Shown one piece after another: positions 1-25,617 of a DNA stretch of 25,617 nucleotides. The notes under the pieces were generated by a model, which saw nothing but the letters and a program-made list of their open reading frames with translations, had not been told where the DNA came from and did not search any database. Both the position numbers and the translations under genes were made by a program. This stretch comes from Planctomycetia bacterium. Lineage in GTDB: Bacteria > Planctomycetota > Planctomycetia > Pirellulales > UBA1268. Position 1 is the first letter of the stretch. Every line of letters begins with the position of its first letter. The DNA is taken from contig JBJSZP010000411.1 in assembly GCA_046090365.1 (NCBI GenBank), forward strand, positions 1-25,617, read 5' to 3'.

Positions 1-2714
<2,714 letters not shown>

Positions 2715-3720: not shown

Positions 3721-4658
3721 GCGAGCGCACGCACGCATCGCCAGCCGCCGACACGCCCGCCGAGCTGCTCGGGCCGGCGTGGGACCTGCTCGACGCGCTG
3801 CCGCGGACGACCGCCCCCGCGGGCATGACGGCGACCACCGTCGAGATGGCCGCGGCCCGGTCGCGGCCGGCACGGGCATCGTGGTGGCGGGGCTGGATCG
3901 CCCCCGTGGTGGTCGTGGCGGCCGCGTTCGTCGTGGGCGTGGCGGCGGGCCGGGGGACCACGACCGACGCCGAGCAATTCGTGTTCGACTACCTGCCCGT
4001 GTTCGAGCACTACGACGTCCTCCGCGAGGCCGGGAGCATAGAGTTTCTGATGGCCCTCGCACGGAAAAACTACCCGCCTCCGCGGCGGCTGTTTCCGCGG
4101 AATGGCGACGGCGGTCCGCCCACATATGAGGCGCTCGATGCGGCCGTCGCGGCGCTCGCAGCCGAGCCGTTTGGCGCGGGCGCAGGCGGCGAGGCTGAGC
4201 GGCGGGCGGCCTTCTCGCGGCAAACCCCCGAGGAGCGGCGCCGGGTGGCCGATGCCGCCGCCGCCGTCCAGCGGCTCTCGTCGATGGAACGCCGCGATCT
4301 CATGCACCTCGCGCGAACGCTCGGCGGCCGCGACGGCACGGGCCCCGACCGCGACGAGCTGCTCGCCGCCGCGCGGCTCTGGCACCAGTGGCTCGCCACG
4401 CGCGATCCGGCCGACCGCAAGGCCGTGATCGACCTCGACACGGCCGAGCGGCTCGAGTGGCTCGACTACGCCCTCGCCCGGCCCGGGGCCGGCCGCGGCG
4501 GCGCGTTTCGCGACGGGGGCGGGTTTCGCGGGTTTCCGCCGCCGGGCCCGCCGCCGGAAGGGGCTCCGGTCGACGGCCCACGGTTCAACGGCCGGCCGCC
4601 GTTCGACCCGCGGCCCCGGCCTCCACTTCCCCGAGAAACTCCAGCACCGCCGCGTTGA
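3717..4658 (+). CDS. Putative membrane-anchored anti-sigma factor
   Basis: GTGA overlap with the sigma stop; short N-terminal domain (AWDLLDALP), one TM helix (WIAPVVVVAAAFVVGVAAG), helical extracytoplasmic region and a G/P/R/F-rich tail. Confidence 0.7.
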   Translation: MSERTHASPAADTPAELLGPAWDLLDALPRTTAPAGMTATTVEMAAARSRPARASWWRGWIAPVVVVAAAFVVGVAAGRGTTTDAEQFVFDYLPVFEHYDVLREAGSIEFLMALARKNYPPPRRLFPRNGDGGPPTYEALDAAVAALAAEPFGAGAGGEAERRAAFSRQTPEERRRVADAAAAVQRLSSMERRDLMHLARTLGGRDGTGPDRDELLAAARLWHQWLATRDPADRKAVIDLDTAERLEWLDYALARPGAGRGGAFRDGGGFRGFPPPGPPPEGAPVDGPRFNGRPPFDPRPRPPLPRETPAPPR

Positions 4659-5421
4659 ACGTGGCCGGATCCTCGAGCGGCGCCATGTGGCCACACCGCG
4701 GCATGATCAGGAGGCGGGGCCGCTGGAGCACCCGCTCGGCCCGCTCCATGCACTCCGGCGGCGTGATCGCGTCTTCTGCGCCGACGACGAGCAGCACGGG
4801 TACCGCGACGGCTCGCATCGGCTCCACCATGTCGGGCCGGGCGGCAAGGGCGGCGAGCGCCGCGGTGATCGTGGCGACGGGCGTGGCGTGGATCGTGCTA
4901 CGCAGGTATTCCTCGATCAGGGGCCGGGCTGGGCTCGCCCGCGCCGCCTCCGACCGGGCGAGCAGGTTGGGGATCATCGCCTCGGCGACCGCCTCCTGGC
5001 CGACCCGCGCGACCGTCGCGGCGAGCTTGCTCCGCGCCGCGCGGGCCTCGGGCGTGTCGGCCTCGAGCTTCGTGTCGACGAGCACGAGCGCCCGCACGCG
5101 GCCGGGGTGGCGCACCGCCACGTGCTCGGCCACGTAGCCCCCCATCGACAGGCCGCAGATCACGGCCGGCTCGGCCACGTGCAACGCGTCGAGGAGGGCG
5201 ACGACGTCGTCGCCCAACTGGGCGATGCTCTCGGGCCCCGCGCCGCCGCTCGCGCCGAAGCCGCGTTGGTCGGGCACGATCAGCCGCACGGAGTCGGCGA
5301 GCGCGTCCTGCCCGGACCACATCGCGTGGTCGAGGGGAAACCCGTGGAGCAGCACGACGGGCAGGCCGCTGCCGCGCGAGTGGACCGCGAGGCTGACGTC
5401 GGGGAGGGAGACGTGGTGCAT
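4585..5421 (-). CDS. Alpha/beta fold hydrolase (PcaD-like)
   Basis: HGFPLD oxyanion motif, GLSMGG nucleophile elbow, GAEDAIT acid, GHMAPLE histidine. Confidence 0.93.
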   Translation of the reverse strand: MHHVSLPDVSLAVHSRGSGLPVVLLHGFPLDHAMWSGQDALADSVRLIVPDQRGFGASGGAGPESIAQLGDDVVALLDALHVAEPAVICGLSMGGYVAEHVAVRHPGRVRALVLVDTKLEADTPEARAARSKLAATVARVGQEAVAEAMIPNLLARSEAARASPARPLIEEYLRSTIHATPVATITAALAALAARPDMVEPMRAVAVPVLLVVGAEDAITPPECMERAERVLQRPRLLIMPRCGHMAPLEDPATFNAAVLEFLGEVEAGAAGRTAAGR

Positions 5422-5424
5422 GAC

Positions 5425-5476
5425 GTAGGACAGGCTTTAGCCTGTCGGGTGTGGGACAGACTGAAGCCTGTCCTAC
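5425..5476. repeat. REP-like doublet, GACAGGC family
   Basis: GTAG-GACAGGC-TTTA-GCCTGTC (5425-5446) and, on the minus strand, GTAG-GACAGGC-TTCA-GTCTGTC-CCAC (5451-5476). Related copies at 18015-18037 and 25281-25327. Confidence 0.85.
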
Positions 5477-7293
5477 GGGGCGAGGTTTTCGAACCGCTCG
5501 AGGTTGCGCTGGATCGTGCGGTTGTGCGGCTCGTAGCGCTTCGCGAGCCGCTGCGTGCGGATCGCGGCGGCGTGCCGCCCCGCGGCGGCGTAGCAGTGGG
5601 CGAGCGTGTCGAGAAAACTCGCGTTGTCGAACGACTTGAGCAGCGACACCTTCGAGAATCGCGTGGCCTTGGCCACGTCGCCTTCCGTGTTGGCCACGAG
5701 CCACGCATATTCGTTGTAGCCCGACGCTTCGTCGGGCACGGCGTTGATCTCGTCCTCGAGCTGCAACGCGGCGGCCTTCACCTTGCGAACCGCATCGGCC
5801 CGCTGCTCGGCCGTGTGGTTGGGGAAACTGTAGAGCGCGATCAGGGCATCGACGTCCTTCGGATAGACGGCGAGCGCCTTCTCGAGCTTGGCACGGCTGC
5901 CGGCCATGTCGCCCTTCTGGAGGAGCGCACACGCCTCGAAGAAGTGCATCCGGGAACGGATCGACCGCAGGTCGCGGCCGAGAAGCCCCTGTCCGAGACC
6001 GCCGTCGCGGCGGCCATCGCCCTGTTCGTCGTCGCCGAACACTTTCCGCAGGCAGCGGGCGGCCTCCTCGTCGCGCTCGAGGTCGTGAAGCAGTTCCGAG
6101 TACAGCATCGACACGGCCGCCGCTTCGGCGACAGGGAGGCTCGGCTCGGCCAGGATGCGGTCGTAGAGATCGACGGACCAGTCGATGCCGCCCCACTTCG
6201 CGAGCAGCCGCGCGGCCGCCAGCCGGTCGGACACGTCGGCCCGCGCCGCAGCCGCGAACGCCGCGGTGATCCGTTCGGCCGCCTGGGCCTCGCGGCCCCG
6301 GGCCCGCTCCGCGAGCGCGATCGCACAGCCCACGAGCGGGTTGCCGTCGGCGACGCCCGGCACGGCGAGCATGGCCTCGACCGCCTCGGGCAGCCCCGCC
6401 TCGACCGCCCACGTGAGCGCTTCGACGCCCCCGGCGCGGGTGTCGTCGTCATCCTCGAGGGCCGCGGCCACGTGCGCCCGCGCGGCGGCGATGGCCTCGT
6501 CGCGGCGGCCGGCAGCGGCGAGCATCTGGGCGTGGCAGCGGGTGAAGATCTGTTCGGTGTGGCTGAAGATCACCTGCGACTCCTCCACGCCCTCGCCCGT
6601 GGAGAGCAGGGGCACGCCGTCGGGCGCGGGGCGGCGCAGGTCGTCGAGCGTGGTGGTGGCGGCGGCAAGCGCCGTATCGCGGTCGGCCGGGCTCGACGCG
6701 CCGGTGAAGGCCACGAGCGCCGAGAGGAACCGGGCCGCCGGCCGCGTGCTGGGGCCGAGGCCCGCCTCGATGCGGCGGCGGATGTCGGGCCACGAGGGAT
6801 CGCCCTCCCGCCACTCGCGGGCGAGCAGCGCCGCCGCGATCCGCGAGCCGGCCGTCGATGGATCGAGCCGCGTCACGCGGGCGAGCGGCTCGATGCCGGC
6901 GTCGTCGTCGATCCGCAGGAGCCGGTGCATCGCCCGCACGCGTTCGCCGAAGTCGCGCTGCTTGAACCGGGCGAGCAGTTTCACGACCTCGGGCGGGTCG
7001 TGCGGCAGTTCGAAGGGGATCGTCTCCACGAGCCAGCGGGCCCGGAGGGCGATCTCGAGATCGCCGCTCGTCTCGCCGGCCTCGAGAAGGGCGTCGATCG
7101 CGCCGGGCCCGAGCGCCTTGAGCTCCGCGGCCGCCGCCTCGCGGCGGTGATAGTCGTCGTCGCCGAGGGCCTCGACGAGGGTGCCGAGCCGCTCCTGCGT
7201 GTCGGTGTCGGCGCCGGCCCTCGTCGCGGCGAGCACGTGACACGCGAGCAGGAGGACGGCGACGTTCGACAGGCGGAGCAGGCCCAATGCCAT
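5473..7293 (-). CDS. Exported helical-repeat (HEAT-like N-terminus, TPR C-terminus) protein
   Basis: 606-aa ORF with a signal-peptide-like N-terminus, LVEALGDDDYHRREAAAAELKALG, and TPR-like AYNEYAWLVAN...FLDTLAHCYAAAG segments. Confidence 0.85.
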   Translation of the reverse strand: MALGLLRLSNVAVLLLACHVLAATRAGADTDTQERLGTLVEALGDDDYHRREAAAAELKALGPGAIDALLEAGETSGDLEIALRARWLVETIPFELPHDPPEVVKLLARFKQRDFGERVRAMHRLLRIDDDAGIEPLARVTRLDPSTAGSRIAAALLAREWREGDPSWPDIRRRIEAGLGPSTRPAARFLSALVAFTGASSPADRDTALAAATTTLDDLRRPAPDGVPLLSTGEGVEESQVIFSHTEQIFTRCHAQMLAAAGRRDEAIAAARAHVAAALEDDDDTRAGGVEALTWAVEAGLPEAVEAMLAVPGVADGNPLVGCAIALAERARGREAQAAERITAAFAAAARADVSDRLAAARLLAKWGGIDWSVDLYDRILAEPSLPVAEAAAVSMLYSELLHDLERDEEAARCLRKVFGDDEQGDGRRDGGLGQGLLGRDLRSIRSRMHFFEACALLQKGDMAGSRAKLEKALAVYPKDVDALIALYSFPNHTAEQRADAVRKVKAAALQLEDEINAVPDEASGYNEYAWLVANTEGDVAKATRFSKVSLLKSFDNASFLDTLAHCYAAAGRHAAAIRTQRLAKRYEPHNRTIQRNLERFENLAP

Positions 7294-7390
7294 CGCGACT
7301 CTCCCGACGGCGGGTGGCAGCTCCGACGGCGGGCGGCACCCGGATCACCTTCAGCCTACGTCCGCCGCCGACGCGTGGGCAAGCGGCCGG

Positions 7391-15247: not shown

Positions 15248-16444
15248 CTACTTCCGCGCGAGGGGATGGCGGAGCGGGAGCCAGGCGCCGTCGGCCTTGC
15301 TCGACGCCACCGACTGCTCGATGAAATACATCCCCTCCACGCCGTCGTGGATGTTGGGATAGACCGTGTGCGTCCGTTCGAACGGCTTGCCGGTGAGGGC
15401 GAGCTCCATGGCGTCGTAGGCGGAGCGGTAGACGTTGGCGAAGGCCTCGAAGAAGGCCTCGGGGTGCCCCGACGGCAGCCGGCAGGCCGCCTTGCCCGCC
15501 GCGTTCATGAACGGGGCGTTGGGGTCGCGGGTGTAGACCCGCAGCGGCTCGCCGTTTTGCCGCACGAGGAGCTGGTTGGGGTTTTCCTGGTGCCACTCGA
15601 GGCTCGCCCGCGTGCCGTCGACCTGGATCCGCAGGTCGTTTTCGCGGCCGTGGCTGATCTGCGAGGCCGTGACCGTGCCGAGGGCGCCGTTCTCGTAGCG
15701 GATCACGGCGTGGCCGTAGTCGTCGAGGGGGCGGCCCGGCTCGAACGTCTTGAGGTTCGCGCTGATCTTCTCCGGGAGCAGGCCGGTCATGTAGCGGCCC
15801 AGGTTGTAGGCGTGCGTGGCGATGTCGCCGAAAGCGCCGGCGGCGCCGCTCTTCGTGGGATCGGTCCGCCAAGCCGCCTGCTTCTGCCCCTCCGCCTCGA
15901 GCCTGGTCCGCAGCCAGCCCTGGATGTATTCGGCCCGGATCGCCTGGATCTCGCCGAGCTCGCCCGAGAGGATCATCTCCCGGGCCTGCCGCACGAGCGG
16001 GTAGCCCGTGTAGTTGTGCGACACGGCGAACACCACGCCCGACTTCTTCACCGCCTCGGCGAGGGCCTCGGCCTCGGCGAGCGTGAGCGTGAGCGGCTTG
16101 TCGCAGACCACGTTAAAGCCCGCCTCGACCGCCCCCTTGGCGACCGGGAAGTGCATGTGGTTCGGCGTCGTCACCGACACGAAGTCGATCCGTTTCCCAG
16201 CCGGCAGGGCCTTCTCGGCGGCGAACATCTCCGCGTAGGAGCCGTAGGCGCGGGCCTCGTCGACGGCATAATCGGCGGCGCTCGCCTTGGAGCGGGCCGC
16301 GTCGCTGGAAAACGCCCCTGCCACGAGCTCCGCCCGGTTGTCGAGCACCGCCGCGGTGACGTGCACGCGGCCGATGAACGAGCCCTGCCCGCCCCCCACG
16401 ATCCCCATCCGCAACTTCCTGCCGAGAGCCCCGTTGGTCGCCAT
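15248..16444 (-). CDS. Gfo/Idh/MocA family oxidoreductase
   Basis: [53 protein letters not shown]. Confidence 0.95.
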
Positions 16445-16579
16445 GCCTCTTCCTTTCCCTGTGCGGAGCGATGATTTGGCCGCCTCGCGCGGGCGGCGAC
16501 GCGAAGCGTAGCAGATGCCGATCGGCCGGTCAGGATGCCGCTCCGGACGAGCGGCCGAGGCGGGCGGCCCGCCCGGCGG

Positions 16580-16609
16580 TTGCCGCCGCCCCCCACGCCG
16601 CGCTACGAT
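16580..16609 (+). promoter_or_regulatory. Putative promoter of a leaderless rhomboid transcript
   Basis: TTGCCG-18nt-TACGAT, 7 nt upstream of ATG 16617. Confidence 0.5.
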
Positions 16610-16616
16610 GCCTCGG

Positions 16617-17510
16617 ATGGGATTCTCCGACCGCGGCTACTACCGCTCCGAGCCGTCGAACGCCTTCCTCCAGGAATGGACCGGCGTGCTCACGCTCATC
16701 GTGGCGAACGTGGCCATCTGGGTGGCGAACCTGCTCGGGGCGAACGAGTTTCCCGTGAACCGGTTCCTCGCCCTCCAGGGCGACCTCCCGCAGCACCTCC
16801 TCAAGGTGTGGGAACTGGTCACCTACGGCTTCGTGCACGACTCGTTCAATCCGTGGCACCTCGTCGTCAACATGCTCACGCTCTGGTTCTTCGGCCGCGT
16901 GGTCGAGGAGGTGATGGGGCGGGCCGAGTTCTTCCGCTTCTATTTCACGGCGATCGTGCTCGCGGGCATCGCCTGGCTCGTGAGTGTGCAGATGGGCCAC
17001 CCGCTCCAGGCGGCCCGGTTCTCGCTCGTGGGCGCCAGCGGCGCCGTGATGGCCGTGCTCGCCGTCTTCATCTGGTACTTCCCGCGGCAGACGCTCCTCA
17101 TCTGGGGCGTGCTCCCCGTGCCGGCCTGGGCGCTCGGCCTCCTGTATTTCGTGTCGGACGTGCAGGGCGCGGCCTCGGGCGGCGGCAACGTGGCCCACGT
17201 GGCCCACATCGCCGGCGCGATCTTCGGACTTCTCTACGCCTGGCGTGGCTGGAACCTCGGCGGCCTCGCCGACGTCGGCGCCGCCTTCCGCCGCCGCCGG
17301 ATGCGCGTGGTGCGGCCCGACGACGACCGCGCCGCCCCGCGGCCCGCCGCCCGCCCCCGCGAACCCGAGCGGCTCGACCCCGACCTCCAGGAGCAGGTCG
17401 ACCGGATCCTCGAGAAGATCAGCCGCTCGGGCGAATCGAGCCTCACGACCACCGAACGCGACACGCTCACGCAGGCCAGCCGCCGCCTCAAGGAACGCTC
17501 GCGCTCGTAA
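16617..17510 (+). CDS. Rhomboid family intramembrane serine protease with a C-terminal helical extension
   Basis: WELVTYGFVH, HLVVNMLTLWFFG, GASG catalytic Ser, AHVAHIAG catalytic His, QEQVDRILEKIS tail; start MGFSDRGYY chosen (16608 is an alternative). Confidence 0.95.
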   Translation: MGFSDRGYYRSEPSNAFLQEWTGVLTLIVANVAIWVANLLGANEFPVNRFLALQGDLPQHLLKVWELVTYGFVHDSFNPWHLVVNMLTLWFFGRVVEEVMGRAEFFRFYFTAIVLAGIAWLVSVQMGHPLQAARFSLVGASGAVMAVLAVFIWYFPRQTLLIWGVLPVPAWALGLLYFVSDVQGAASGGGNVAHVAHIAGAIFGLLYAWRGWNLGGLADVGAAFRRRRMRVVRPDDDRAAPRPAARPREPERLDPDLQEQVDRILEKISRSGESSLTTTERDTLTQASRRLKERSRS

Positions 17511-17527
17511 CCAATTTCGCGCGCGCC

Positions 17528-17833
17528 GGCTTCGGGCTCCCCGTATCCCGTCGCCGGACGTTCGCCTGCGCCCTCCAGGCTCCGGCTCACTCGACTCCGG
17601 CTGCGCTCCGCCTGGCGGCTTTCGCGCCGTCGCCGCCGTCCCGGCGTCGGCTCCGGCTTACGGTCGCCGGGCATAGCCCGGCTTCCACACGCGAACGTCA
17701 GGGCCGGAGGCCCGGGTGATCACCAGCCGACGGAGGTCGGCAAAGCGAACAGCGGCACGATGCCGGGTGTTCGCGTGAAGATGGCTGCGCTTGCCTACAT
17801 ACGCCTGCTCCAGGACACGGGGAGCCCGAAGCC
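17528..17833. mobile_element. Unit U1: 306-bp MITE/REPIN-like element with 17-bp perfect TIR and hairpin cargo
   Basis: GGCTTCGGGCTCCCCGT (17528-17544)/ACGGGGAGCCCGAAGCC (17817-17833); 17783-17833 is identical to the reverse complement of 25517-25567. Confidence 0.75.
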
Positions 17834-17853
17834 TCCTCAACTGGGAAAGAGGA

Positions 17854-17995
17854 GGCTCGGGGCTGCCCATGCCCTTGAGCGGGCTGTGGGAGCGAGCGCA
17901 GGCATGGATGCCGAAAGCGAAGCGCACACGCAGAGAGCCGAAGCCTGGAGGGCTGAGGCGAACGTCAAGCGAGAGGGCGTGGGCAGTCACGAGCC
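17854..17995 (-). mobile_element. Unit U2 copy A: 142-bp TIR-bounded palindromic element
   Basis: Ends GGCTCGGGGCTGCCC/GGGCAGTCACGAGCC; the reverse complement matches 22662-22802 with 14 mismatches and 1 gap by hand alignment. Confidence 0.8.
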
Positions 17996-18014
17996 GGCGC
18001 GTACCTGTAGCCGG

Positions 18015-18037
18015 TGACAGACTGAAGACTGTCCCAC
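18015..18037 (-). repeat. REP-like unit, GACAGGC family
   Basis: GTGG-GACAGTC-TTCA-GTCTGTC-A on the minus strand. Confidence 0.75.
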
Positions 18038-18047
18038 CTGCGGCGCC

Positions 18048-18677
18048 TTAGCGTGTGAGGCCGGTTGGGATCGCGGCAGTGCGCTGCTCGGGGCGGGCCT
18101 GCAGGCGCAGGGCGTCGATCGTGGCCACGAGTTCGCGCATCTTGACGTCGTCGACGCGGCCCGAGAGCACGGCATGCACTTCGCCGCGCGGGTTGACGAG
18201 CACCACGTTGGGCGCGCCGGGCACGATGCCGTAGGCGTGCTCGAGCCGGCCTTCGAAGTCGAGCCACACCGGGACGAAGGGGGAGTCTTTGCGGAGCTGT
18301 GCGCGGGCCACCGGCTGGAGCGCCTTGGGGATTTCGGGCAGGCTCGCGACGGCGACCACGTGCACGTCGGGCAGCCGCACGCCGGCCGGCCAGCCGGCGA
18401 GGCCGATCACGGGCTGGCGACACCATTCCGTGGCCGGGGCGGTGGCGGCGGTGGGGTGGAAGTGGAGGTGGAGCCGGCGGCCGAGTTCCTGCGCTGCCTC
18501 GCCCCCCTTGCGCTCCGCATACACGAGCACGACCACGTCGCCGCGCAGCATGCCGGTCTCGTGGCGGTGCTTGAACTGATCTTCCATCGCGATGTTCACG
18601 ACGCGCTCGGGAGGCTGTCCGGCAGTGGGCGAGGCGAAGAGCGAGACGAGGACGACCGCGGTGACGAGGGTGCGCAT
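18048..18677 (-). CDS. Exported hypothetical protein, thioredoxin/AhpC-like fold without CxxC
   Basis: Signal peptide from ATG 18677 (MRTLVTAVVLVSLFAS); EDQF..., VVVLVYA, VWLDFEGRLEHAYG, NVVLVNPRGEV pattern typical of Trx-like folds. Confidence 0.75.
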   Translation of the reverse strand: MRTLVTAVVLVSLFASPTAGQPPERVVNIAMEDQFKHRHETGMLRGDVVVLVYAERKGGEAAQELGRRLHLHFHPTAATAPATEWCRQPVIGLAGWPAGVRLPDVHVVAVASLPEIPKALQPVARAQLRKDSPFVPVWLDFEGRLEHAYGIVPGAPNVVLVNPRGEVHAVLSGRVDDVKMRELVATIDALRLQARPEQRTAAIPTGLTR

Positions 18678-18760
18678 GGCGGCTCCGGGGAGAGGGAGGG
18701 ATCGGGGAAGTACCGCGCGGCCGGATGCGGACACAAGGGCGGTTTCCCAGCGGGAGGCTG

Positions 18761-21523
18761 CTACGTCTCCGCGGTCGCACCGCCGGGCCGGAGCAACGCC
18801 AGGATCGCCGGCAGGAGGATGAGCGAGGTCACGGTGCAGGCGGTGACGCCGAGCGTGAGCACGCGGCCGAGGCTTTCGAGACCGCGGTGGCTGGCCACCA
18901 TCAGGGCGCCGAAACCGAGGATCGTGGTCAGCGCGTCGACGAGCACGGAGTTGGCCGTCGAGGCGCTGATCGCGTAGGGGCCGGGCCGTTCAAGGTAGTC
19001 GTGGACGATGTGCACGCCGTAGTCGACCGCGATGCCGAGGATCAGCGGGATGCCGATGAGATTGGCGGGATTGAGGTCGATGCCCACGAGGCCCATCAGG
19101 CCGAGCGTCTGCGCCATGCCCACGGCCAGGGGCAGCGCCGCCAGGAACGAGTGGGCGAGGCTCCGGAAATCGAGCCACAACACCGCGAGGATCACGACGA
19201 GCGAGTAGAGCGCGGCCTGCTCGTAGCTGCGCTTCATCTCGAGCGACGCCTCGTAGGCCTGGAGGGGATTGCCGGTGGCCCGCGGGTCGACGCCGCGGAC
19301 GTCCTTCACAAACGTCTCGAGCGCCGCGAAGTCCCAGATGTCGCCGCGGCCGTAGATCTTGAGCAGATGCCGGCCGTTCTGCCCCACGAATCGCTCCACG
19401 AGGCTCGGCGGCAGGTCTTCGAGCGACGGGGGTTCGGGGTCGGCGACGCCGGCGAGGGCGTGGAGCCGGCTCAGGAGCTCGCCGGCCGATCGCTGTTGGA
19501 ACGTGGCCAACGCCCGGGCGCATTCCTCCGGGCCGAGGCGGCGCAGCGCGTCGCGGGCCCGCTCGAGGTGCCAGGCGGTGCGCAGCGCGCCGGGCCGTTT
19601 CGATGCCTCCGTCTGCGCCCAGGCGAGCGTCTCGCCCACCTGGTCGAGCCGATCGAGCGGGATCTCGGGCGGCCGCTCCGGGAGCGTGGCCAGCCGCATT
19701 TGAATCCGCTCGATGAGCGGTCGCTTCAGATCTTCGTCGACTGGCAGGAGCGATGCGATCTCGTCGACCCGCTCCACGCTCGGCAGCGCCTGCAGCCGCT
19801 CCTTGCGGTCGAGGAGTTCCTCGCGGGAGTCGGCGATCGACAGGGCATACCACACGCTCTGGTCGCACTCGGCGAGCAGTTTCTTTTCGATCTCCACGCT
19901 CTCGAGGCCGTCGGGCTGCATGTTGAGCAGGTTGTGGTCGTAGTCCAGGTCGTGCAGGCCCGACGCCACCGCCATCGTGCCGGCCATCGCGGCCAGGGCC
20001 ACAAACCGCGGATAGCGGAAGATCGGGGCGAGCCACGCATGCACCGGCACCGGCATCGGGATGCGGCGGCCGAGCGGCCCACGGTCGACGACGGCCACGA
20101 CGGCCGGCAGCACGAGCAGTTCGGCGAGGCAGCAGAGGAGGATGCCGCCGCCGGCGATCAGGCCGAGCTCGGCCACGCCCACGAAGCTCGTGAGGGCCGC
20201 GGCGAAGAAGGCGACGGCCGTGGTGATAGCGCCGGTGAGGATGCCCGGCCCGACCGAGGCGCTTGTCTCGAGGAGCGCCGCTTCGCAGTCGAGGCCACGC
20301 CGGCGGAGCTCGAGGTAGCGGCCGATGTAGTACGTGCCGTAGTCGATCCCCACGCCGATCATCGTCACGGTGAACGTGACGCTGAGGATGTTGAGGTGCC
20401 CGACGCTCGCCGTCGCCCAGGCAAAGGCCCAGGCCATGCCGATCACGAGCACGCCGTTGGCCATCAGCGCGTGCCGCACGCCGCCGAACCCGGCGATGAT
20501 CACGAGCGCCACGGCTGCGAGCGAAAGCCCGCTCGCCCACACCATCGACTGCTGGCTGGCCCGCATCTCGTCGTCTTCCATGACCGGCAGCCCCGTGAGG
20601 CCGATCGTCACGTCCGGGTGCCGGTCGCCGACCAGCGCGATCACGCGGCGCAACTCGTCCGTGGCGGCCGACGCGCCGGCGAACCCGCCCGGAGCCTTCG
20701 CCAGCCGGAGGAGCACGAAGCCCAGCCGGCCATCCTTGGCGAGGAGGTGTTCGCTCGAGAGGTCGCGGAGCGTCGAGAGCGACTCGGGCATGGCCGGCCA
20801 GGGCGACACGTAGTCGGCCGTCGCGGATTCGCCCGGCCGGGCGACCGCCTCGAGCCCGGCCACGAGGCTCTCGCTGTAGCGCTCGAGGGCCGAGGTCGGA
20901 TCCTCGCGCTGCGCCCGCGTGCCGGCAGGCCCGCCGGCCACCATCTGGCCTGCGAGGCCGCCCACCATCGTCGTCACCGTCAGTTGGCCCCAGCCGCCGT
21001 CGAGGATCGGCCGCGTGCGCTCGATGAACCGGTCAATCTCCGCCAGGTCGGCCGGGGAAAGATAGTGCAGCCCCTTGGCGCGGATCTTCGAGAGATCGAC
21101 CTCGTGGAGCACCGAGCGGAAGAGCTCGCCGTTGCGGGCGACCTCAGCCGAGACCTCCTCGAGCACCTGGACGACGGCGGTCCGCGAGGGGCCCTCGACG
21201 ACGACGACGGCGTCTTCATCGGCGCCGAATTCCGCGATGTAGTCGATCCACAGCTTGTTGTATTCGCTGTCGGGATCGAGCAGGTCGGTGCGGCTCACCT
21301 TGTAGCCGAGCGACTGCGCGGTGAACACGCCTGCGGCGACTGCCGACAGCACGGCCGTGAGCACCACGAGCGGCGCGGCCCGCAGGCAGAGCCGCGTCCA
21401 GGCCACGAGCCCGCGGCCGAGCAGGCTCGGAGATGCGTGGCTGCCGTCGTTCGGCTCGGGCGCCGCCGCCGCGAGCAGATTCGGCACGGGATCGGCGTCA
21501 TCGTGTGACGGCATCGGGGGCAA
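18761..21523 (-). CDS. MMPL/RND family transporter (HpnN-like)
   Basis: 920 aa; two TM blocks (IGLTGLP, LNILSVTFTVTMIGVGIDYG; LNPANLIGIPLILGIAVDYGVH), LDYDHNLLNMQ. Confidence 0.92.
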   Translation of the reverse strand: MPPMPSHDDADPVPNLLAAAAPEPNDGSHASPSLLGRGLVAWTRLCLRAAPLVVLTAVLSAVAAGVFTAQSLGYKVSRTDLLDPDSEYNKLWIDYIAEFGADEDAVVVVEGPSRTAVVQVLEEVSAEVARNGELFRSVLHEVDLSKIRAKGLHYLSPADLAEIDRFIERTRPILDGGWGQLTVTTMVGGLAGQMVAGGPAGTRAQREDPTSALERYSESLVAGLEAVARPGESATADYVSPWPAMPESLSTLRDLSSEHLLAKDGRLGFVLLRLAKAPGGFAGASAATDELRRVIALVGDRHPDVTIGLTGLPVMEDDEMRASQQSMVWASGLSLAAVALVIIAGFGGVRHALMANGVLVIGMAWAFAWATASVGHLNILSVTFTVTMIGVGIDYGTYYIGRYLELRRRGLDCEAALLETSASVGPGILTGAITTAVAFFAAALTSFVGVAELGLIAGGGILLCCLAELLVLPAVVAVVDRGPLGRRIPMPVPVHAWLAPIFRYPRFVALAAMAGTMAVASGLHDLDYDHNLLNMQPDGLESVEIEKKLLAECDQSVWYALSIADSREELLDRKERLQALPSVERVDEIASLLPVDEDLKRPLIERIQMRLATLPERPPEIPLDRLDQVGETLAWAQTEASKRPGALRTAWHLERARDALRRLGPEECARALATFQQRSAGELLSRLHALAGVADPEPPSLEDLPPSLVERFVGQNGRHLLKIYGRGDIWDFAALETFVKDVRGVDPRATGNPLQAYEASLEMKRSYEQAALYSLVVILAVLWLDFRSLAHSFLAALPLAVGMAQTLGLMGLVGIDLNPANLIGIPLILGIAVDYGVHIVHDYLERPGPYAISASTANSVLVDALTTILGFGALMVASHRGLESLGRVLTLGVTACTVTSLILLPAILALLRPGGATAET

Positions 21524-21746
21524 GGCTCTCGAGGCTGGGCGGGGCGGCGATCGTAGGGGACGGGCGCGTCATGGCCAACGTCCACTGCGGGGAGGCCTGG
21601 CAAGCGGGGAAGGGTGGGCAAGCCCGTGCGGGGGCACGGTGCAGACGACGCGGGAAATGACTGTTTTGGAACGGTGCCCGAGGCCGAAAAGTCTCCGGCA
21701 CCGTCACGCCTCGACAGGGGCGGGATGGTGGTTCGGGGGGGAAGTC

Positions 21747-22661
21747 ATGCCAGTGCTTCGTGGATCGTGGATGGGATTGGCAGCCGTGCTCGCGGTGTTT
21801 GCCGGCACGCGGTTGCCAGCTGCTGAGCCTGCCGTGGCGGCGAACCTCGTGGCGGCGTGGAACGACGGTGGCTCGTCGAGCCGTGAGGCCCGGCGGCAGG
21901 CGATCGACAGCCTGCCGCTCGAGCGGATGACCGATCCCGCGCGGCGCACCGTCGAGAAGGCGCTGCGGGAGACCACGCTCTATCGCCGTCTGCCCGTGCA
22001 GACGTTCACGTGCGACGAGGCGCTGCTCGAGTTTGCGCTCGCCCATCCGGAGGCGATCGTCGACGTGTGGCGGGTGCTCGGCATCAGCCGCCTGTCGCTC
22101 GATCCGGCCGGGCCGCAGCAGTGGCGGCTCTCCGACGGCTACGGCACCGTCGGGGCCCTGCGGCTCATGCACCGGGAACGCCGCGGGCCCGGCGGCCTGC
22201 TCGTGTTCCATGGCCGCGGCGGCTATTCGGGAACGCTCGCACCGAAGCCGCTCACCGGCGGCTGCCTGATCCTCGTGCAGCATCACCCGGAGCCACCGGC
22301 GGCCGGCGGAGGCCACCGGCAGACCGTGCAGATCGACGCCTTCCTCGACGTCGATGGGATGGGCCTCGAACTCGTCACCCGCACGCTCCAGCCGCTGATC
22401 GTGCGTTCCGCCGCCATGAATCTCGGCGAGGTGTGCCTCTTCATGGAGTCGCTCTCCGCCGCCGCGGAGCGAAACCCGGCCGGCGTGGTGCGGCTCACCG
22501 AGCGGCTCGCCCGCACCGACCCGGCCCAACGGGCGACGTTCGCGAACATCGCCCGCGCCGCCGGCGCGAACGCAGGCCGCGTTGGCGATCCCGAGGCGGT
22601 GCAAGCCGAACTGGCCGCCCGCTGGCTGCCTGCAGAGGACGTCGACACGCTGCGGCGGTGA
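21747..22661 (+). CDS. Exported hypothetical protein
   Basis: Long ORF with a signal-peptide-like start MPVLRGSWMGLAAVLAVFAG and natural residue composition; upstream extension to 21321 overlaps the MMPL gene and was discarded. Confidence 0.8.
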   Translation: MPVLRGSWMGLAAVLAVFAGTRLPAAEPAVAANLVAAWNDGGSSSREARRQAIDSLPLERMTDPARRTVEKALRETTLYRRLPVQTFTCDEALLEFALAHPEAIVDVWRVLGISRLSLDPAGPQQWRLSDGYGTVGALRLMHRERRGPGGLLVFHGRGGYSGTLAPKPLTGGCLILVQHHPEPPAAGGGHRQTVQIDAFLDVDGMGLELVTRTLQPLIVRSAAMNLGEVCLFMESLSAAAERNPAGVVRLTERLARTDPAQRATFANIARAAGANAGRVGDPEAVQAELAARWLPAEDVDTLRR

Positions 22662-22802
22662 GGCTCGGGGCTGCCCACGCCCTCTCGCTTGACGTTCGCC
22701 TCGGCCCTCCCGGCCTCGGCTCTCTGCATGTCCGCTTCGCTTCGCCATCCATGGCTTCGCTCGCTCCCATAGCCCGCTCGAGGGCATGGGCAGCCCCTCG
22801 CC
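22662..22802 (+). mobile_element. Unit U2 copy B (stand-alone) between convergent genes
   Basis: Begins at the base after the upstream TGA; GGCTCGGGGCTGCCCACGCCCT...AGGGCATGGGCAGCCCC; about 89% identical to the reverse complement of 17854-17995. Confidence 0.8.
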
Positions 22803-22812
22803 AAGCCGTTCG

Positions 22813-23643
22813 TTATTTGTCGGCGTCTTCTATCGGCGCGTCGGCAGGCTTCTCTTCTGCCGGCTTCTCTTCCGCGGGCTTTGCATCCGCTGCGGGCGCG
22901 TCGGCCGGGGCGTCGGCTGCGGGTGCGGGGGCCGTGAGGGCGTCGAGCGGGCTCGCCTCGCCGTCTGGTGCCGCGTCGGCCGGTGCCTCTTCGGTGGCGG
23001 TGGTGGCGGATGGCGGGGCGAGCGCCGCGGCCACGGCCTTCGCGGCCGCCTTCGCCGCTTCGTCGATCTTTCCCTTCGGTGCCCGGGCCTCCACCGTGTA
23101 CATCCGCCCGCCGATCACGACGGCGTAGCTCCAGCGTTCGATCGGCTCGCTGATGCCATCGACCTTCGCCGACCCGGGGATGCCCCAGAAGGCGCCCAGG
23201 TGCGGCCCCACTTTCACCGCGGAGGACTTCTTCAGCGGCTTCGCCTTGCCGAGCGCGGCGGCCACGCCCTCCGCGATGCCGGCGGCGAAAGCCTGGTGAT
23301 TCTCGGCCGTCACCTCCGTGAACTCCGGTGGTGCCGCCTCGGCCGTGACGAGGATCTTCGGGTAGGTCTTCTTCGGGCCGGGCTGATACTTGACGAGGCA
23401 GTCCTTCGTGCGCGGCAGCCGCGTCCAGCCCGTCGGCGAGGCGACGGCGATCCGGCCGTCGTCGACCGCCAGCGCCGTATCGAGGTCGACGGCGGGCAGC
23501 TTGCCGCCCGCCGTGCCGCCGCCCGACTTCTTCTTCGTGGCCTTCCCGCCGCAGCCGACGGCAACCGTGAACGACAGGCACACGAGGCACACGAACAGCA
23601 GCCGCCCGAGCCGAGCAGTGTCCACCGCGGCGGTTTCGGCCAT
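22813..23643 (-). CDS. Putative lipoprotein with an acidic Ala/Pro-rich tail
   Basis: Hydrophobic stretch ending in lipobox-like VAVG-C; globular core; PAEEK repeats; 11 nt downstream of the previous stop with an AGGAA SD-like sequence. Confidence 0.75.
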   Translation of the reverse strand: MAETAAVDTARLGRLLFVCLVCLSFTVAVGCGGKATKKKSGGGTAGGKLPAVDLDTALAVDDGRIAVASPTGWTRLPRTKDCLVKYQPGPKKTYPKILVTAEAAPPEFTEVTAENHQAFAAGIAEGVAAALGKAKPLKKSSAVKVGPHLGAFWGIPGSAKVDGISEPIERWSYAVVIGGRMYTVEARAPKGKIDEAAKAAAKAVAAALAPPSATTATEEAPADAAPDGEASPLDALTAPAPAADAPADAPAADAKPAEEKPAEEKPADAPIEDADK

Positions 23644-23654
23644 GTCGGCGTTCC

Positions 23655-24002
23655 TTACTCCGAGATCGCTTCCTTCACGAGCTGCACGAAGTGCTGCGAC
23701 CGCGACGACGCCGTCAGGTCGGCGGCCTTCTTGTCGGCGGCCTTCTTGTCGGCGTATTCGAAGAGCACGAGCCGCTTCATCGACGGGTTGAACACGCCCC
23801 AGTAGGCCTTCATCCGGACCTCCTTGGCGACCTTCTTGCGGGAGGCCTTCTTGGCGGCGGGCTTCTTCGGCTCCTTGGCGGCCTTCTCCTTCTTCTCCTT
23901 GGCCGGCTTCTCCTTGGCGGCCTTCTTCGTCGTCTTGGCGCGGGCCTCCGCCGCGTCCGCCTGGGCCCTGAGTTCCTTGCGATTCACCACTTTTCGCGCC
24001 AT
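23655..24002 (-). CDS. Small Lys/Ala-rich hypothetical protein (histone H1-like low-complexity segment)
   Basis: 115 aa, 26 Lys; KKAAKEKPAKEKKEKAAKEPKKPAAKK segment followed by a folded-looking YWGVFNPSMKRLVLFEY...HFVQLVKE tail. Confidence 0.85.
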   Translation of the reverse strand: MARKVVNRKELRAQADAAEARAKTTKKAAKEKPAKEKKEKAAKEPKKPAAKKASRKKVAKEVRMKAYWGVFNPSMKRLVLFEYADKKAADKKAADLTASSRSQHFVQLVKEAISE

Positions 24003-24076
24003 GTCGCCCCGTGATCCTTCCGAAATGAAGAGGTATGGGAGGCGGAGTCGGACTGCTGCCGTCCCGCCGCGGCGGC

Positions 24077-24082
24077 AGTATA
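24077..24082 (-). promoter_or_regulatory. Putative -10 (TATACT) for the small basic protein/lipoprotein operon
   Basis: TATACT on the minus strand about 75 nt upstream of ATG 24002, divergent from the nadA promoter. Confidence 0.4.
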
Positions 24083-24112
24083 GCGGTCCCGCCCCCCCGC
24101 CGCACGGCGATC

Positions 24113-24118
24113 TATACT
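24113..24118 (+). promoter_or_regulatory. Putative -10 (TATACT) of a leaderless nadA transcript
   Basis: 7 nt upstream of ATG 24126; no SD. Confidence 0.6.
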
Positions 24119-24125
24119 TTCCCGC

Positions 24126-25268
24126 ATGAGCACCGCCGCCGACCCCGTGCCCCGCGCCGCCCCCTTCCCGGCCTACCGCAGCCTCGAGGACGCCGAACTC
24201 TCCGACCGCATCGAGGCGGTGCGGCGCCGCATGGGCCCGCGGCTCGTGATCCTCGGCCACCACTACCAGCAGGATGGCGTGATCGCCCACGCCGACTTCC
24301 AGGGCGACAGTTACCAGCTGTCGAAGTCGGCCGCGGAGCGGTCCGGCTGCGAGGCGATCGTGTTCTGCGGCGTGCACTTCATGGCCGAGACGGCCGACAT
24401 CCTCGCCAACCGCCCCGAGCAGGTGGCGGCCCGCGGCGGCCGCCGCGTCAGCGTCGTGCTTCCCGACATGGCCGCCGGCTGCTCGATGGCCGACATGGCG
24501 GGGATCGAGCAGGTGGAAGACGCCTGGGCCGACCTCGGCACCGTGATCGACACCTCCGACATCACGCCCGTCACCTACATCAACTCGGCGGCGAGCCTCA
24601 AGGCCTTCTGCGGCCGGCACGGGGGGATCGTGTGCACGTCGAGCAACGCCCGGGCCGTGCTCGACTGGTCCTTCGCCCGCTCGCGCCGCGTGCTCTTCTT
24701 CCCCGACCAGCACCTCGGCCGCAACACGGCCCGGAAGATGGGCGTGCCGCTCGATGAGATGTGCGTCTGGAACCCCCACGACCCGTCGCTCGGCGGCAAC
24801 ACGACGGCGCAGCTCGAGAAGAGCCGCGTCATCCTCTGGCAGGGGCACTGCAGCGTGCACGCCATGTTCAAGCCGGAGCACGTCGACGCGATGCGGGCGA
24901 ACCTTCCGGGCGTGAAGGTGCTCGTCCACCCGGAGTGCTCGATGGAGGTGGTGGACAAGGCCGACCTCGTCGGCTCGACGAGCTACATCCTCAAGCAGGT
25001 CGAGACCGCCCCCGCCGGCAGCGTGTGGGCGATCGGCACCGAACTGCACCTCGTGAAGCGGCTCGAGCAGCGGCATCCCGAGCAGACGGTCCGTTTTTTG
25101 TCGCCAGTCGTATGCACGTGCGCCACGATGTATCGCATCGACCTCGCCCACCTCTGCTGGAGCCTCGAGCACCTCGAGCGGGGCAAGCCCGTGAACGTGA
25201 TCCGCGTCGACGATGAGACGGCCACATGGGCGCTGACGGCGCTCGAGCGAATGCTCAAGGTGTCGTGA
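24126..25268 (+). CDS. nadA: Quinolinate synthase
   Basis: ILGHHYQ, FCGVHFMAETA, AGCSMADMA, TYINS, CTSSNA, PDQHLGRN, GHCSVH, HPEC, CTCATM (three Fe-S Cys). Confidence 0.98.
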   Translation: MSTAADPVPRAAPFPAYRSLEDAELSDRIEAVRRRMGPRLVILGHHYQQDGVIAHADFQGDSYQLSKSAAERSGCEAIVFCGVHFMAETADILANRPEQVAARGGRRVSVVLPDMAAGCSMADMAGIEQVEDAWADLGTVIDTSDITPVTYINSAASLKAFCGRHGGIVCTSSNARAVLDWSFARSRRVLFFPDQHLGRNTARKMGVPLDEMCVWNPHDPSLGGNTTAQLEKSRVILWQGHCSVHAMFKPEHVDAMRANLPGVKVLVHPECSMEVVDKADLVGSTSYILKQVETAPAGSVWAIGTELHLVKRLEQRHPEQTVRFLSPVVCTCATMYRIDLAHLCWSLEHLERGKPVNVIRVDDETATWALTALERMLKVS

Positions 25269-25280
25269 CGCGGGCTACGA

Positions 25281-25327
25281 GTAAGACAGGCGTCCTGCCT
25301 GTCAGTGGGATGGGCTTCAGCCTGTCA
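25281..25327 (+). repeat. Two tandem REP-like units, GACAGGC family
   Basis: GTAA-GACAGGC-GTCCT-GCCTGTC-A and GTGG-GATGGGC-TTCA-GCCTGTC-A. Confidence 0.75.
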
Positions 25328-25348
25328 CTGGCTCAACTCGTGCGCGCC

Positions 25349-25491
25349 GGCTCGGGGTTGCCCCGTACCACCTCGCCGGACGCTCACTGCGCCCCTCCAT
25401 GGGCTTCGTTCGCTCGGAGTCACAGGCGCTGCGCCATCCATGGCTCCGCTGGTGACTCACGCCGGCTTAGTGGTAGGGGCAACCCCGAGCC
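25349..25491 (+). mobile_element. Unit U2 copy C (diverged, 143 bp)
   Basis: 16-bp perfect TIR GGCTCGGGGTTGCCCC/GGGGCAACCCCGAGCC plus inner TACCAC/GTGGTA; shares TCGCCGGACG...CCCTCCA and GCCATCCATGGC boxes with the other copies. Confidence 0.75.
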
Positions 25492-25516
25492 TCCTCTTTC
25501 CTGATTCAGTTGAGGA

Positions 25517-25617
25517 GGCTTCGGGCTCCCCGTGTCCTGGAGCAGGCGTATGTAGGCAAGCGCAGCCCGGGCACCGATTCGCCGAAGGCGAATTGGTCGT
25601 GCGCAGCGCAGCCGGAG
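25517..25617 (+). mobile_element. Unit U1 second copy, truncated by the window end
   Basis: 25517-25567 is identical to the reverse complement of 17783-17833; 25605-25617 matches the reverse complement of 17595-17607; different 37-bp cargo in between. Confidence 0.75.

Follow-up and report, generated by a model that had tools for sequence, protein, structure and literature searches.

The DNA stretch analyzed here, called the window in its full length of 25,617 nt, is contig JBJSZP010000411.1 of GenBank assembly GCA_046090365.1 (Planctomycetia bacterium) and presents one whole contig of a freshwater Pirellulales metagenome-assembled genome (MAG; 2.79 Mb, 620 contigs, 70% G+C, 80% complete). 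The subject is a composite of palindromic repeats, in which a short repetitive extragenic palindrome (REP) and a larger folded unit of 148 nt, termed U, are joined in a fixed order. It occurs twice in the window. Locus 1 starts with a unit head, CGCGCC at 17522-17527, located 11 nt past the TAA stop codon (17508-17510) of a rhomboid-family gene (16515-17510), and its REP at the other end begins 10 nt past the stop codon (18048-18050) of a minus-strand gene. Locus 2 opens with tandem REPs that begin 12 nt past the NadA stop codon, and the contig end cuts through its last unit. The following modules were located:

18015-18037, minus strand: REP of locus 1, GTGG-GACAGTC-TTCA-GTCTGTC with a GTGG tag
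18002-18014, minus strand: linker of locus 1 between the REP and the unit head, 13 nt
17854-18001, minus strand: U unit of subfamily A in locus 1, 148 nt (nhmmer model positions 2-148), head CGCGCC at 17996-18001, tail terminating with CGAGCC at 17854
17834-17853, no strand: tail-to-tail spacer of locus 1, 20 nt, with TCCTC...GAGGA ends and the core CAGTTG/CAACTG
17522-17833, plus strand: U unit of subfamily B in locus 1, inverted relative to the A unit and split by an insert (nhmmer positions 2-91 and 96-148; eight-copy alignment), reading GGCGCG at its minus-strand end
17613-17780, plus strand: self-folding insert of 168 nt in the apical loop of the B unit of locus 1, in place of ATCC
25281-25327, plus strand: tandem REPs of locus 2, a variant GTAA-GACAGGC...GCCTGTC (25281-25303) followed by GTGG-GATGGGC-TTCA-GCCTGTC (25305-25327)
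25328-25491, plus strand: 15-nt linker and 149-nt unit of locus 2, with CGCGCC at 25343-25348
25492-25516, no strand: tail-to-tail spacer of locus 2, 25 nt
25517-25617, minus strand: B-type unit of locus 2, inverted, tail first, severed by the contig end

A first-pass annotation of this DNA had reported an ordered mosaic at both loci in opposite orientations, and every module it listed was recovered at its coordinates. Its division of the large modules into two types, U1 (306 bp) and U2, had to be given up. U1 is the 148-nt U of the B subfamily, inverted and extended by the 168-nt apex insert, and U1 and U2 belong to a single kind of unit, as two subfamilies in tail-to-tail position. At locus 2, the 149-nt unit is a chimera of subfamily-C stem arms and an interior from another subfamily. 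The B-type unit of this locus contains a 34-nt apex hairpin insert at 25558-25591 that is unlike the insert of locus 1, and 61 nt of it are identical to 17783-17843 of locus 1.

A U profile built from 87 flanked copies yielded at least 424 matches in the assembly, distributed over 238 of the 620 contigs and amounting to 1.9% of the assembly; the subfamily A unit of locus 1 alone had 106 near-full-length BLAST matches. Full-length units form subfamilies whose terminal arms of ~23 nt differ in sequence yet remain complementary, with internal blocks in common. Ten copies of the 168-nt insert were present, all 168 nt long, all at model position 91/96 and 93-97% identical, hosted by units of at least three subfamilies, and the insert-free form with ATCC at this position is present in metagenome contigs. 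The first 87 nt of the insert on the minus strand (~17694-17780) belong to a separate dispersed family of ~85 nt with three hairpins, of which 21 free copies were observed, some adjoining REPs and two within units. The 34-nt apex hairpin of the locus 2 type has ~30 copies in the assembly. That the two loci represent a local duplication or a chance resemblance is refuted by the hundreds of copies on 238 contigs as well as by the occurrence in all 15 other congeneric genomes and in most genera of the family (see below).

The REP has the consensus GT[AG]G-GACAGGC-TTCA-GCCTGTC with a 7-bp stem. The pattern gave 600 strand matches (348 loci once strands were merged) versus 8 in the shuffled genome, and a reversed pattern used as control matched 0-1 times per genome. 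Among the ~348 loci of the assembly were 67 solo REPs, 24 inverted doublets and 10 tandem arrangements. The 24 doublets, 47 nt long with a median gap of 9 nt, are inverted REPs with a short spacer, i.e., of the REPIN type (REP doublet forming a hairpin). A palindrome of 20-40 bp with a GTAG-type tag at one end, high copy number, extragenic and mostly 3' of gene location as well as the occurrence as singles, dimers and clusters agree with the GTAG-tagged REP superfamily, which has been described before with some members in Planctomycetes (PMC3733652). Gene contexts, here and below, were derived with a crude GC3-based gene caller, which is good for 3' ends and incomplete. In co-directional contexts, the GTAG strand of solo REPs was the sense strand in 18 cases vs 4.

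Adjacent features not more than 60 nt apart were counted over all arrays of the assembly (R, REP; U, unit; arrowheads give the orientation):

R>U>, a REP before a unit head in the same orientation: 183 cases, median gap 16 nt
U>U<, units tail to tail: 93 cases, median gap 25 nt
R>R<, REP doublets: 24 cases, median gap 9 nt
Tandem units, in most cases a full unit behind a head fragment: 15 cases, median gap 10 nt
Tandem REPs: 10 cases, median gap 6 nt
Other REP-unit arrangements, i.e., exceptions: 2 cases

Thus 183 of 185 REP-U contacts are canonical, and head-to-head units were not present in the counted arrays. Adjacent near-full units are placed tail to tail in 52 of 52 pairs, with spacers of 18-37 nt, and the spacer motif follows 209 of 257 unit tails in either orientation. 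Only one of the 52 pairs had partners of >85% identity, compared to 19.8% of random unit pairs; our binomial estimate for one such pair or less by chance is ~1e-4. The simplest explanation for this pairing of different subfamilies may be the instability of long perfect palindromes. The length of the 183 REP-U linkers peaks at 14-16 nt (105 linkers). Linkers fall into families, and one and the same linker is joined to different unit subfamilies, while like unit combinations have unrelated linkers; the mosaic is therefore truly modular, and its instances are not copies of a single composite. Judging from the shuffled modules and the chimeric units, recombination at the conserved junctions is frequent. 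Full symmetric arrays R>U>U<R< were found nine times among the arrays located >150 nt from contig ends. They span 380-490 nt, and GTAG and CTAC are their outer limits.

The initial proposal of an ordered mosaic resembling the bacterial interspersed mosaic elements (BIMEs), built from units far larger than REPs, is borne out by this fixed module order and by the dispersal over the genome. With at least 424 U matches and ~348 REP loci in fixed order, the refuting case named with the proposal, an architecture limited to two loci or a random order of modules, fails. As in BIMEs, REPs alternate with conserved intervening motifs in fixed order, in the form R>U>U<R< and in truncated forms; BIME linkers are short motifs of tens of nucleotides with IHF or gyrase sites, however, whereas the inner part of the mosaic consists of 340-520 nt of structured units.

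To study the fold, 25 units representing six genera of the family were aligned. RNAalifold predicted a 15-bp closing stem and internal hairpins, with compensatory changes in 17 of 27 predicted pairs. Pair statistics were counted on a 30-pair structure supplied by us. In this structure, 94.1% of the cells were paired vs 31-54% with the partner slid, and double (compensatory) changes occurred in 20 of the 30 pairs. The covariation score was 0.341, compared to at most 0.06 in the slid controls and 0.107 in shuffles. Folded with DNA parameters, the locus 1 composite forms one long imperfect hairpin centered on the spacer (-173 kcal/mol, z = -8.4 vs shuffles), within which the 168-nt insert makes its own local hairpins.

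Covarying stems with conserved unpaired blocks in six genera are also expected if U is a structured RNA, e.g., a 3'-UTR (untranslated region) stabilizer, a terminator or a small RNA, with the tail-to-tail pair serving both convergent transcripts and the REPs as bystanders. The location agrees with this explanation: units lie right past stop codons, the same order of REP, linker and U is met from each gene 3' end, and 61 of 125 classified arrays (49%) are located between convergent genes vs 244 of 1262 gene pairs (19%). RNA-library contigs cover the U units at 16000-23500, and two metatranscriptome studies contain units in their contigs; however, these data are contigs only, the units are multicopy and DNA carry-over is possible. 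The depth of RNA libraries over the units was not clearly above the ~200-fold multicopy excess observed in DNA. The pair statistics speak for a different level of folding. On the 30-pair structure, G-U pairs account for ~1% of the cells and one-sided changes are nearly absent, which is expected of a DNA palindrome and unusual for an RNA helix, and thus folding at the DNA level is favored. In addition, an Rfam scan of 17300-25617 at E <= 1 yielded a chance miRNA match and no relevant family, solo units in tandem gene contexts had no orientation bias (small numbers), and the hundreds of copies with heterogeneous nested inserts and truncated units resemble selfish DNA. On the basis of the pair statistics, an RNA role of U is less likely than a role as DNA, and we consider it rather improbable. 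Among mismatch cells on the head-to-tail strand, C-A (~23) exceeded G-U (8), a hint of a fold of the opposite strand on which we do not rely, as the cells are non-independent.

The two module families differ in their phylogenetic range. With at most one mismatch, the REP was detected in 15 of 15 genomes of the genus (labeled G0xx in the following) with 13-629 matches each, and it was essentially absent from 25 other genera. This range coincides with that of a clade of REP-associated tyrosine transposases (RAYTs), i.e., the genus. REP copy numbers differ up to ~50-fold between species of the genus; the two lowest counts were obtained for G015, in which no RAYT was found (83% complete), and for G010, whose RAYT paralogues are flanked by other REPs. 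BLAST identified parts of the composite in 15 of 15 other congeneric genomes searched and, outside the genus, in 7 of 9 further genera of the same family. Among these genera (g-labels), candidate U copies range from tens to >100 per genome in g4, g6, g9 and g10 and are fewer in g7. The copies examined in g4, g6, g7 and g9 were solo units without REP, CGCGCC head or spacer motif, and g10 had tail-to-tail U dimers at two of four loci examined, again without REPs. Taken by genus, U was detected in g1, g4, g6, g7, g9 and g10 and was not found in g2 and g3. With a covariance model derived from the six-genus alignment, matches were obtained in six of seven sampled genomes of the family, and 113 genomes representing 29 further families of the order gave none. 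The 19-nt conserved U core had no exact match when viral contigs were scanned. Compared with the REP and its enzyme, U has a wider range and is probably older.

A candidate enzyme for the REP was present in the genus. In G009, an open reading frame (ORF) of 175 amino acids is flanked on both sides by clusters of the same REP. Its product has an H-V-H motif and a downstream tyrosine and reached 83.5 bits against the NCBIfam model NF047646 'REP-associated tyrosine transposase' (cut-off 80). The same REP also flanks the orthologues in G001, G005, G006, G007 and G012, so that six genomes including G009 present this arrangement, and in G004, G010 and G011 the RAYT paralogues have other GTAG REPs at their flanks. 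By this arrangement, the REP-associated tyrosine (HUH/Y1) transposase of the genus has this REP as its cognate repeat. The first-pass annotation had noted that the window has no transposase, and none was found there or in the whole assembly. It had inferred that the mosaic is non-autonomous and mobilized in trans. For the REP part this is plausible in view of the RAYTs flanked by the same REP in six congeneric genomes. The mobilization of the whole mosaic by that enzyme is not established, because U is family-wide, occurs without REPs in other genera and was never located beside a RAYT. Moreover, linker, unit and insert modules recombine freely.

Other Y1 genes of the family, ORFs of ~240 amino acids flanked by other inverted repeats such as AAAGGTGCCAGCCACC..., AAAAGGGGACGCAGCTC..., or GAAAGCCCGAGGCGTAAGCC, were set aside as candidate mobilizers, since neither this REP nor a U adjoins any of them. 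Several of these ~240-aa Y1 genes of relatives are bracketed, ~800 nt apart, by their own inverted repeats, e.g., AAAGGTGCCAGCCACCAAATCTGGG, AAAAGGGGACGCAGCTC and GAAAGCCCGAGGCGTAAGCC, and look like 'TIRtron/REPtron' units. Two of the bracketing repeat words also occur beside U units in the window genome.

Orthologous gene ends revealed a turnover of the modules. At the 3' site of the rhomboid-family gene, G015 has a 74-nt unique spacer and no repeat, G010 a solo unit directly past the stop codon, G005 a solo inverted unit and G002 the array R>U>U<, compared to U(+insert)>U<R< in the window genome. The stop codon TAG of the rhomboid gene in G002 is the TAG of the REP GTAG (L021 2111-2132). At the 3' site of the gene ending at 22661, the gene-unit junction is common to the window genome and G002, although G002 has a truncated unit with a REP behind it; in other species, the site contains a head fragment plus a full unit, a unit plus REPs, REPs only, or nothing. 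The empty-site orthologues asked for in the first-pass annotation thus exist, G015 being an example. The intergenic DNA is too diverged for a base-by-base alignment of occupied with empty orthologous sites, and exact insertion boundaries were not obtained. Direct repeats of 4-8 nt flanking 22 solo units were no commoner than in controls. This absence of a target-site duplication fits HUH-type or recombinational spread.

The terminal inverted repeats (TIRs) of ~23 nt, which differ between subfamilies, might suggest that U is a classical TIR-bounded MITE (a miniature transposable element with inverted repeats), moved by cut-and-paste with a DDE transposase and inserted site-specifically next to REPs. 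REPs are indeed known as insertion targets of insertion sequence (IS) elements (PMC1525189). DDE-type MITEs have a target-site duplication flanking the terminal inverted repeats, and U lacks it. The internal hairpins covary as well as the termini, orientation and ~15-nt spacing from the REP are fixed, and a non-exhaustive look at the split or long-spaced unit matches of this assembly revealed no longer element that combines U ends with an ORF. We regard a MITE origin as very unlikely. A somewhat better, still quite low probability is assigned to arrays that the host has recruited and retained for a function, as sites of recombination or of binding by nucleoid or topology proteins, as proposed for the Neisseria intergenic mosaic elements (NIMEs) and the E. 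coli BIMEs. The long persistence throughout one bacterial family, the conserved internal blocks and the syntenic sites that are repeatedly occupied with changing content, as in NIME arrays (PMC1797815), would agree with host sites, but empty orthologous sites exist, copy numbers vary up to ~50-fold within the genus, no binding protein or recombinase was identified, and no tie of the arrays to certain gene classes came to light, in an analysis that was not aimed at it.

The reading we prefer, with a probability of about 60%, is that locus 1 represents a single copy of a nested palindromic mosaic that occurs throughout the genus in strict order and is composed of non-coding, non-autonomous modules, which most likely act as single-stranded DNA hairpins. 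From outside to inside, the order is an outward-facing GT[AG]G REP, a linker of ~15 nt, a 148-nt U, a spacer of ~20-25 nt and an inverted U of a different subfamily; a mirror-image linker and REP often close the far side, and smaller self-folding hairpins can occupy the apical loop of U (168 nt at locus 1). The strict grammar, the fixed REP-U distance, the outward GTAG limits and the fold as a giant hairpin argue that the mosaic is processed as hairpin DNA in single-stranded form, the kind of substrate used by HUH/Y1 enzymes (PMC3333891, PMC3479197). The REP parts of the window genome may be nicked and joined in trans, now or formerly, by a RAYT missing from the incomplete assembly. U, a hairpin element of family-wide range, would be the older partner, linked to the REP system within this genus, and the modules would be reshuffled by recombination at conserved junctions. 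Presumably only self-closing modules are tolerated in the loops and stem bases of other modules, which could give rise to the Russian-doll order. Perfect long palindromes would be avoided, hence paired units from different subfamilies, and the elements may accumulate at gene 3' ends, where they are least harmful.

Several observations weigh against this interpretation. U is abundant in genera without this REP and RAYT clade, and none of the Y1 genes examined had a U unit within 1.5 kb. The assembly, which is 80% complete and breaks at repeats, has no Y1 transposase by Pfam PF01797, and tblastn with the RAYT proteins of the genus (G009, G010) gave no significant match in it. The solo unit is thermodynamically ordinary (z = -0.67, DNA parameters), and the presence of units within contigs of two metatranscriptome runs would suit an RNA role. 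Where the A + B(+insert) combination recurs, the linkers of its copies are unrelated, which speaks against a simple copy-and-paste of the whole mosaic. For the element between two REPs as the copied unit, the GTAG/CTAC outer limits and the one-hairpin fold of the composite stand against the unrelated linkers and the module shuffling. A direct transposition event was not observed. None of the metatranscriptome and metagenome contigs placed on 16000-23500 joined across the whole mosaic; the lack of an excised form in this set is uninformative either way.

In a different arrangement, U would be no passenger of the REP system but a separate, family-specific class of folded single-stranded DNA element with its own copying machinery, and the whole set of repeats (REP, U, the ~85-nt three-hairpin family and the small hairpins of the apex) would spread by inserting themselves into the loops and stem bases of other hairpin elements. 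We hold this to be unlikely, though less so than a function of U as RNA. If true, the targeting of hairpins within hairpins would be a mechanism not described for bacterial repeats.

Beside the two loci, the window has further members of these families:

22662-22802, plus strand: solo A-type U unit without CGCGCC head, spacer or REP (147.6 bits, model R1)
5425-5476, no strand: plain REPIN-type doublet of the same REP family, GTAG...CTAC outward, with an 8-nt gap

The first base of the solo unit abuts the TGA (22659-22661) of the upstream gene, and the unit ends 10 nt short of the convergent gene. The REPIN doublet fills the gap between the minus-strand ORFs 4585-5436 and 5473-7344. Within uvrA (3-2714, minus strand), 48 nt at 1264-1311 match the ~85-nt three-hairpin family with 81% as a partial copy. 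The uvrA reading frame seems to harbor a repeat module. The ORF 22813-24105 (minus strand) contains 15-nt periodic direct repeats of the GGCTTCTCTTC and GGCCTTCTTG types and has no Pfam match, which suggests a low-complexity repetitive protein as the predicted product.

The repeats affect the assembly itself. Within the whole assembly, 219 of 1240 contig ends lie not more than 300 nt from a U unit and 135 U matches are severed by contig ends. In the best DNA run, the sequencing depth was ~200x greater over U units than over flanking genes. These repeats are a main cause of assembly fragmentation. The relatives of the window proteins are MAGs from lakes and other fresh waters, mostly labeled Pirellulales or Planctomycetia, and the DNA runs containing window DNA were mostly labeled as freshwater or lake-water metagenome, few as aquaculture. 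With ~2% of the genome, the repeats are of practical concern: this freshwater planctomycete lineage is widespread, and its metagenome assemblies break at them.

Among the long-lived resident mobile DNA of bacteria, REP/REPIN systems are known best, but work on them has been almost confined to Proteobacteria and to simple hairpin doublets. Here, a genus-confined REP and its enzyme are tied by a near-invariant grammar to an older, family-confined unit of 148 nt. The system is a natural setting in which to test the carrying and joining capacities of a RAYT, and it could reveal how long imperfect palindromes are tolerated and how mosaic repeats are built. In the literature searched, no description of the U unit or its grammar in Planctomycetes was found, which is not a proof of absence. 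GTAG-tagged REPs as such and Pseudomonas REPs fused to unrelated stem-loops had been described (PMC3733652). New are the REP-unit grammar, the cognate RAYT in the genus and the genus-level range of the REP compared to the family-level range of U. Likewise new are the rule of pairing different subfamilies, the apex inserts and the argument for folding at the DNA rather than the RNA level.

Among known repeats, the MITE-like Correia and ERIC-type elements (100-170 bp, TIR-bounded) have the size, the terminal inverted repeats, the intergenic location and the internal indel variants in common with U. Correia elements duplicate TA, whereas U units have no target-site duplication, and U differs from both types by covarying internal helices and by an orientation strictly coupled to REPs and the partner unit. 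The closest architectural analogue of the mosaic are the NIMEs, in which 20-bp dRS3 inverted repeats flank RS units of 50-150 bp (PMC1797815). In both systems, small inverted repeats bracket larger repeat units, syntenic arrays vary between strains and other repeats nest inside. However, a sequence relation is absent: the flanking repeat is a GTAG REP in place of dRS3 (ATTCCC-N8-GGGAAT). RS units have no known conserved covarying fold or tail-to-tail pairing rule, and dRS3 is tied to a phage recombinase, not to a RAYT. With the E. coli BIMEs (PMC3333891, PMC2817692), the mosaic shares the alternation of REPs and conserved motifs in fixed order and the intergenic location, but the short motifs of the BIME linkers are replaced by two structured 148-nt units of several subfamilies with nested inserts.

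The likeness to the REP/REPIN-RAYT systems of Pseudomonas and E. coli (PMC3116915, PMC3337134, PMC3333891) and to the GTAG REPs (PMC3733652) comprises the 22-nt hairpin with a 5' GT[AG]G tag, the hundreds of copies at gene 3' ends, the inverted doublets with tags outward, a cognate HUH/Y1 gene flanked by REPs (here in other congeneric genomes), the lack of a target-site duplication and the vertical, lineage-restricted distribution. In contrast to these systems, a folded 148-nt unit with its own, wider phylogenetic range is attached to over half of the REPs at a constant distance of ~15 nt, the full mosaic has 380-520 nt between two REPs compared to a spacer of 10-70 nt, and this 80%-complete assembly yielded no enzyme gene. 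On every feature tested except the enzyme gene in this incomplete assembly, the REP part is of the REP/REPIN-RAYT kind. The composite would work like a BIME or REPIN, but includes an additional, independent, family-wide hairpin unit.

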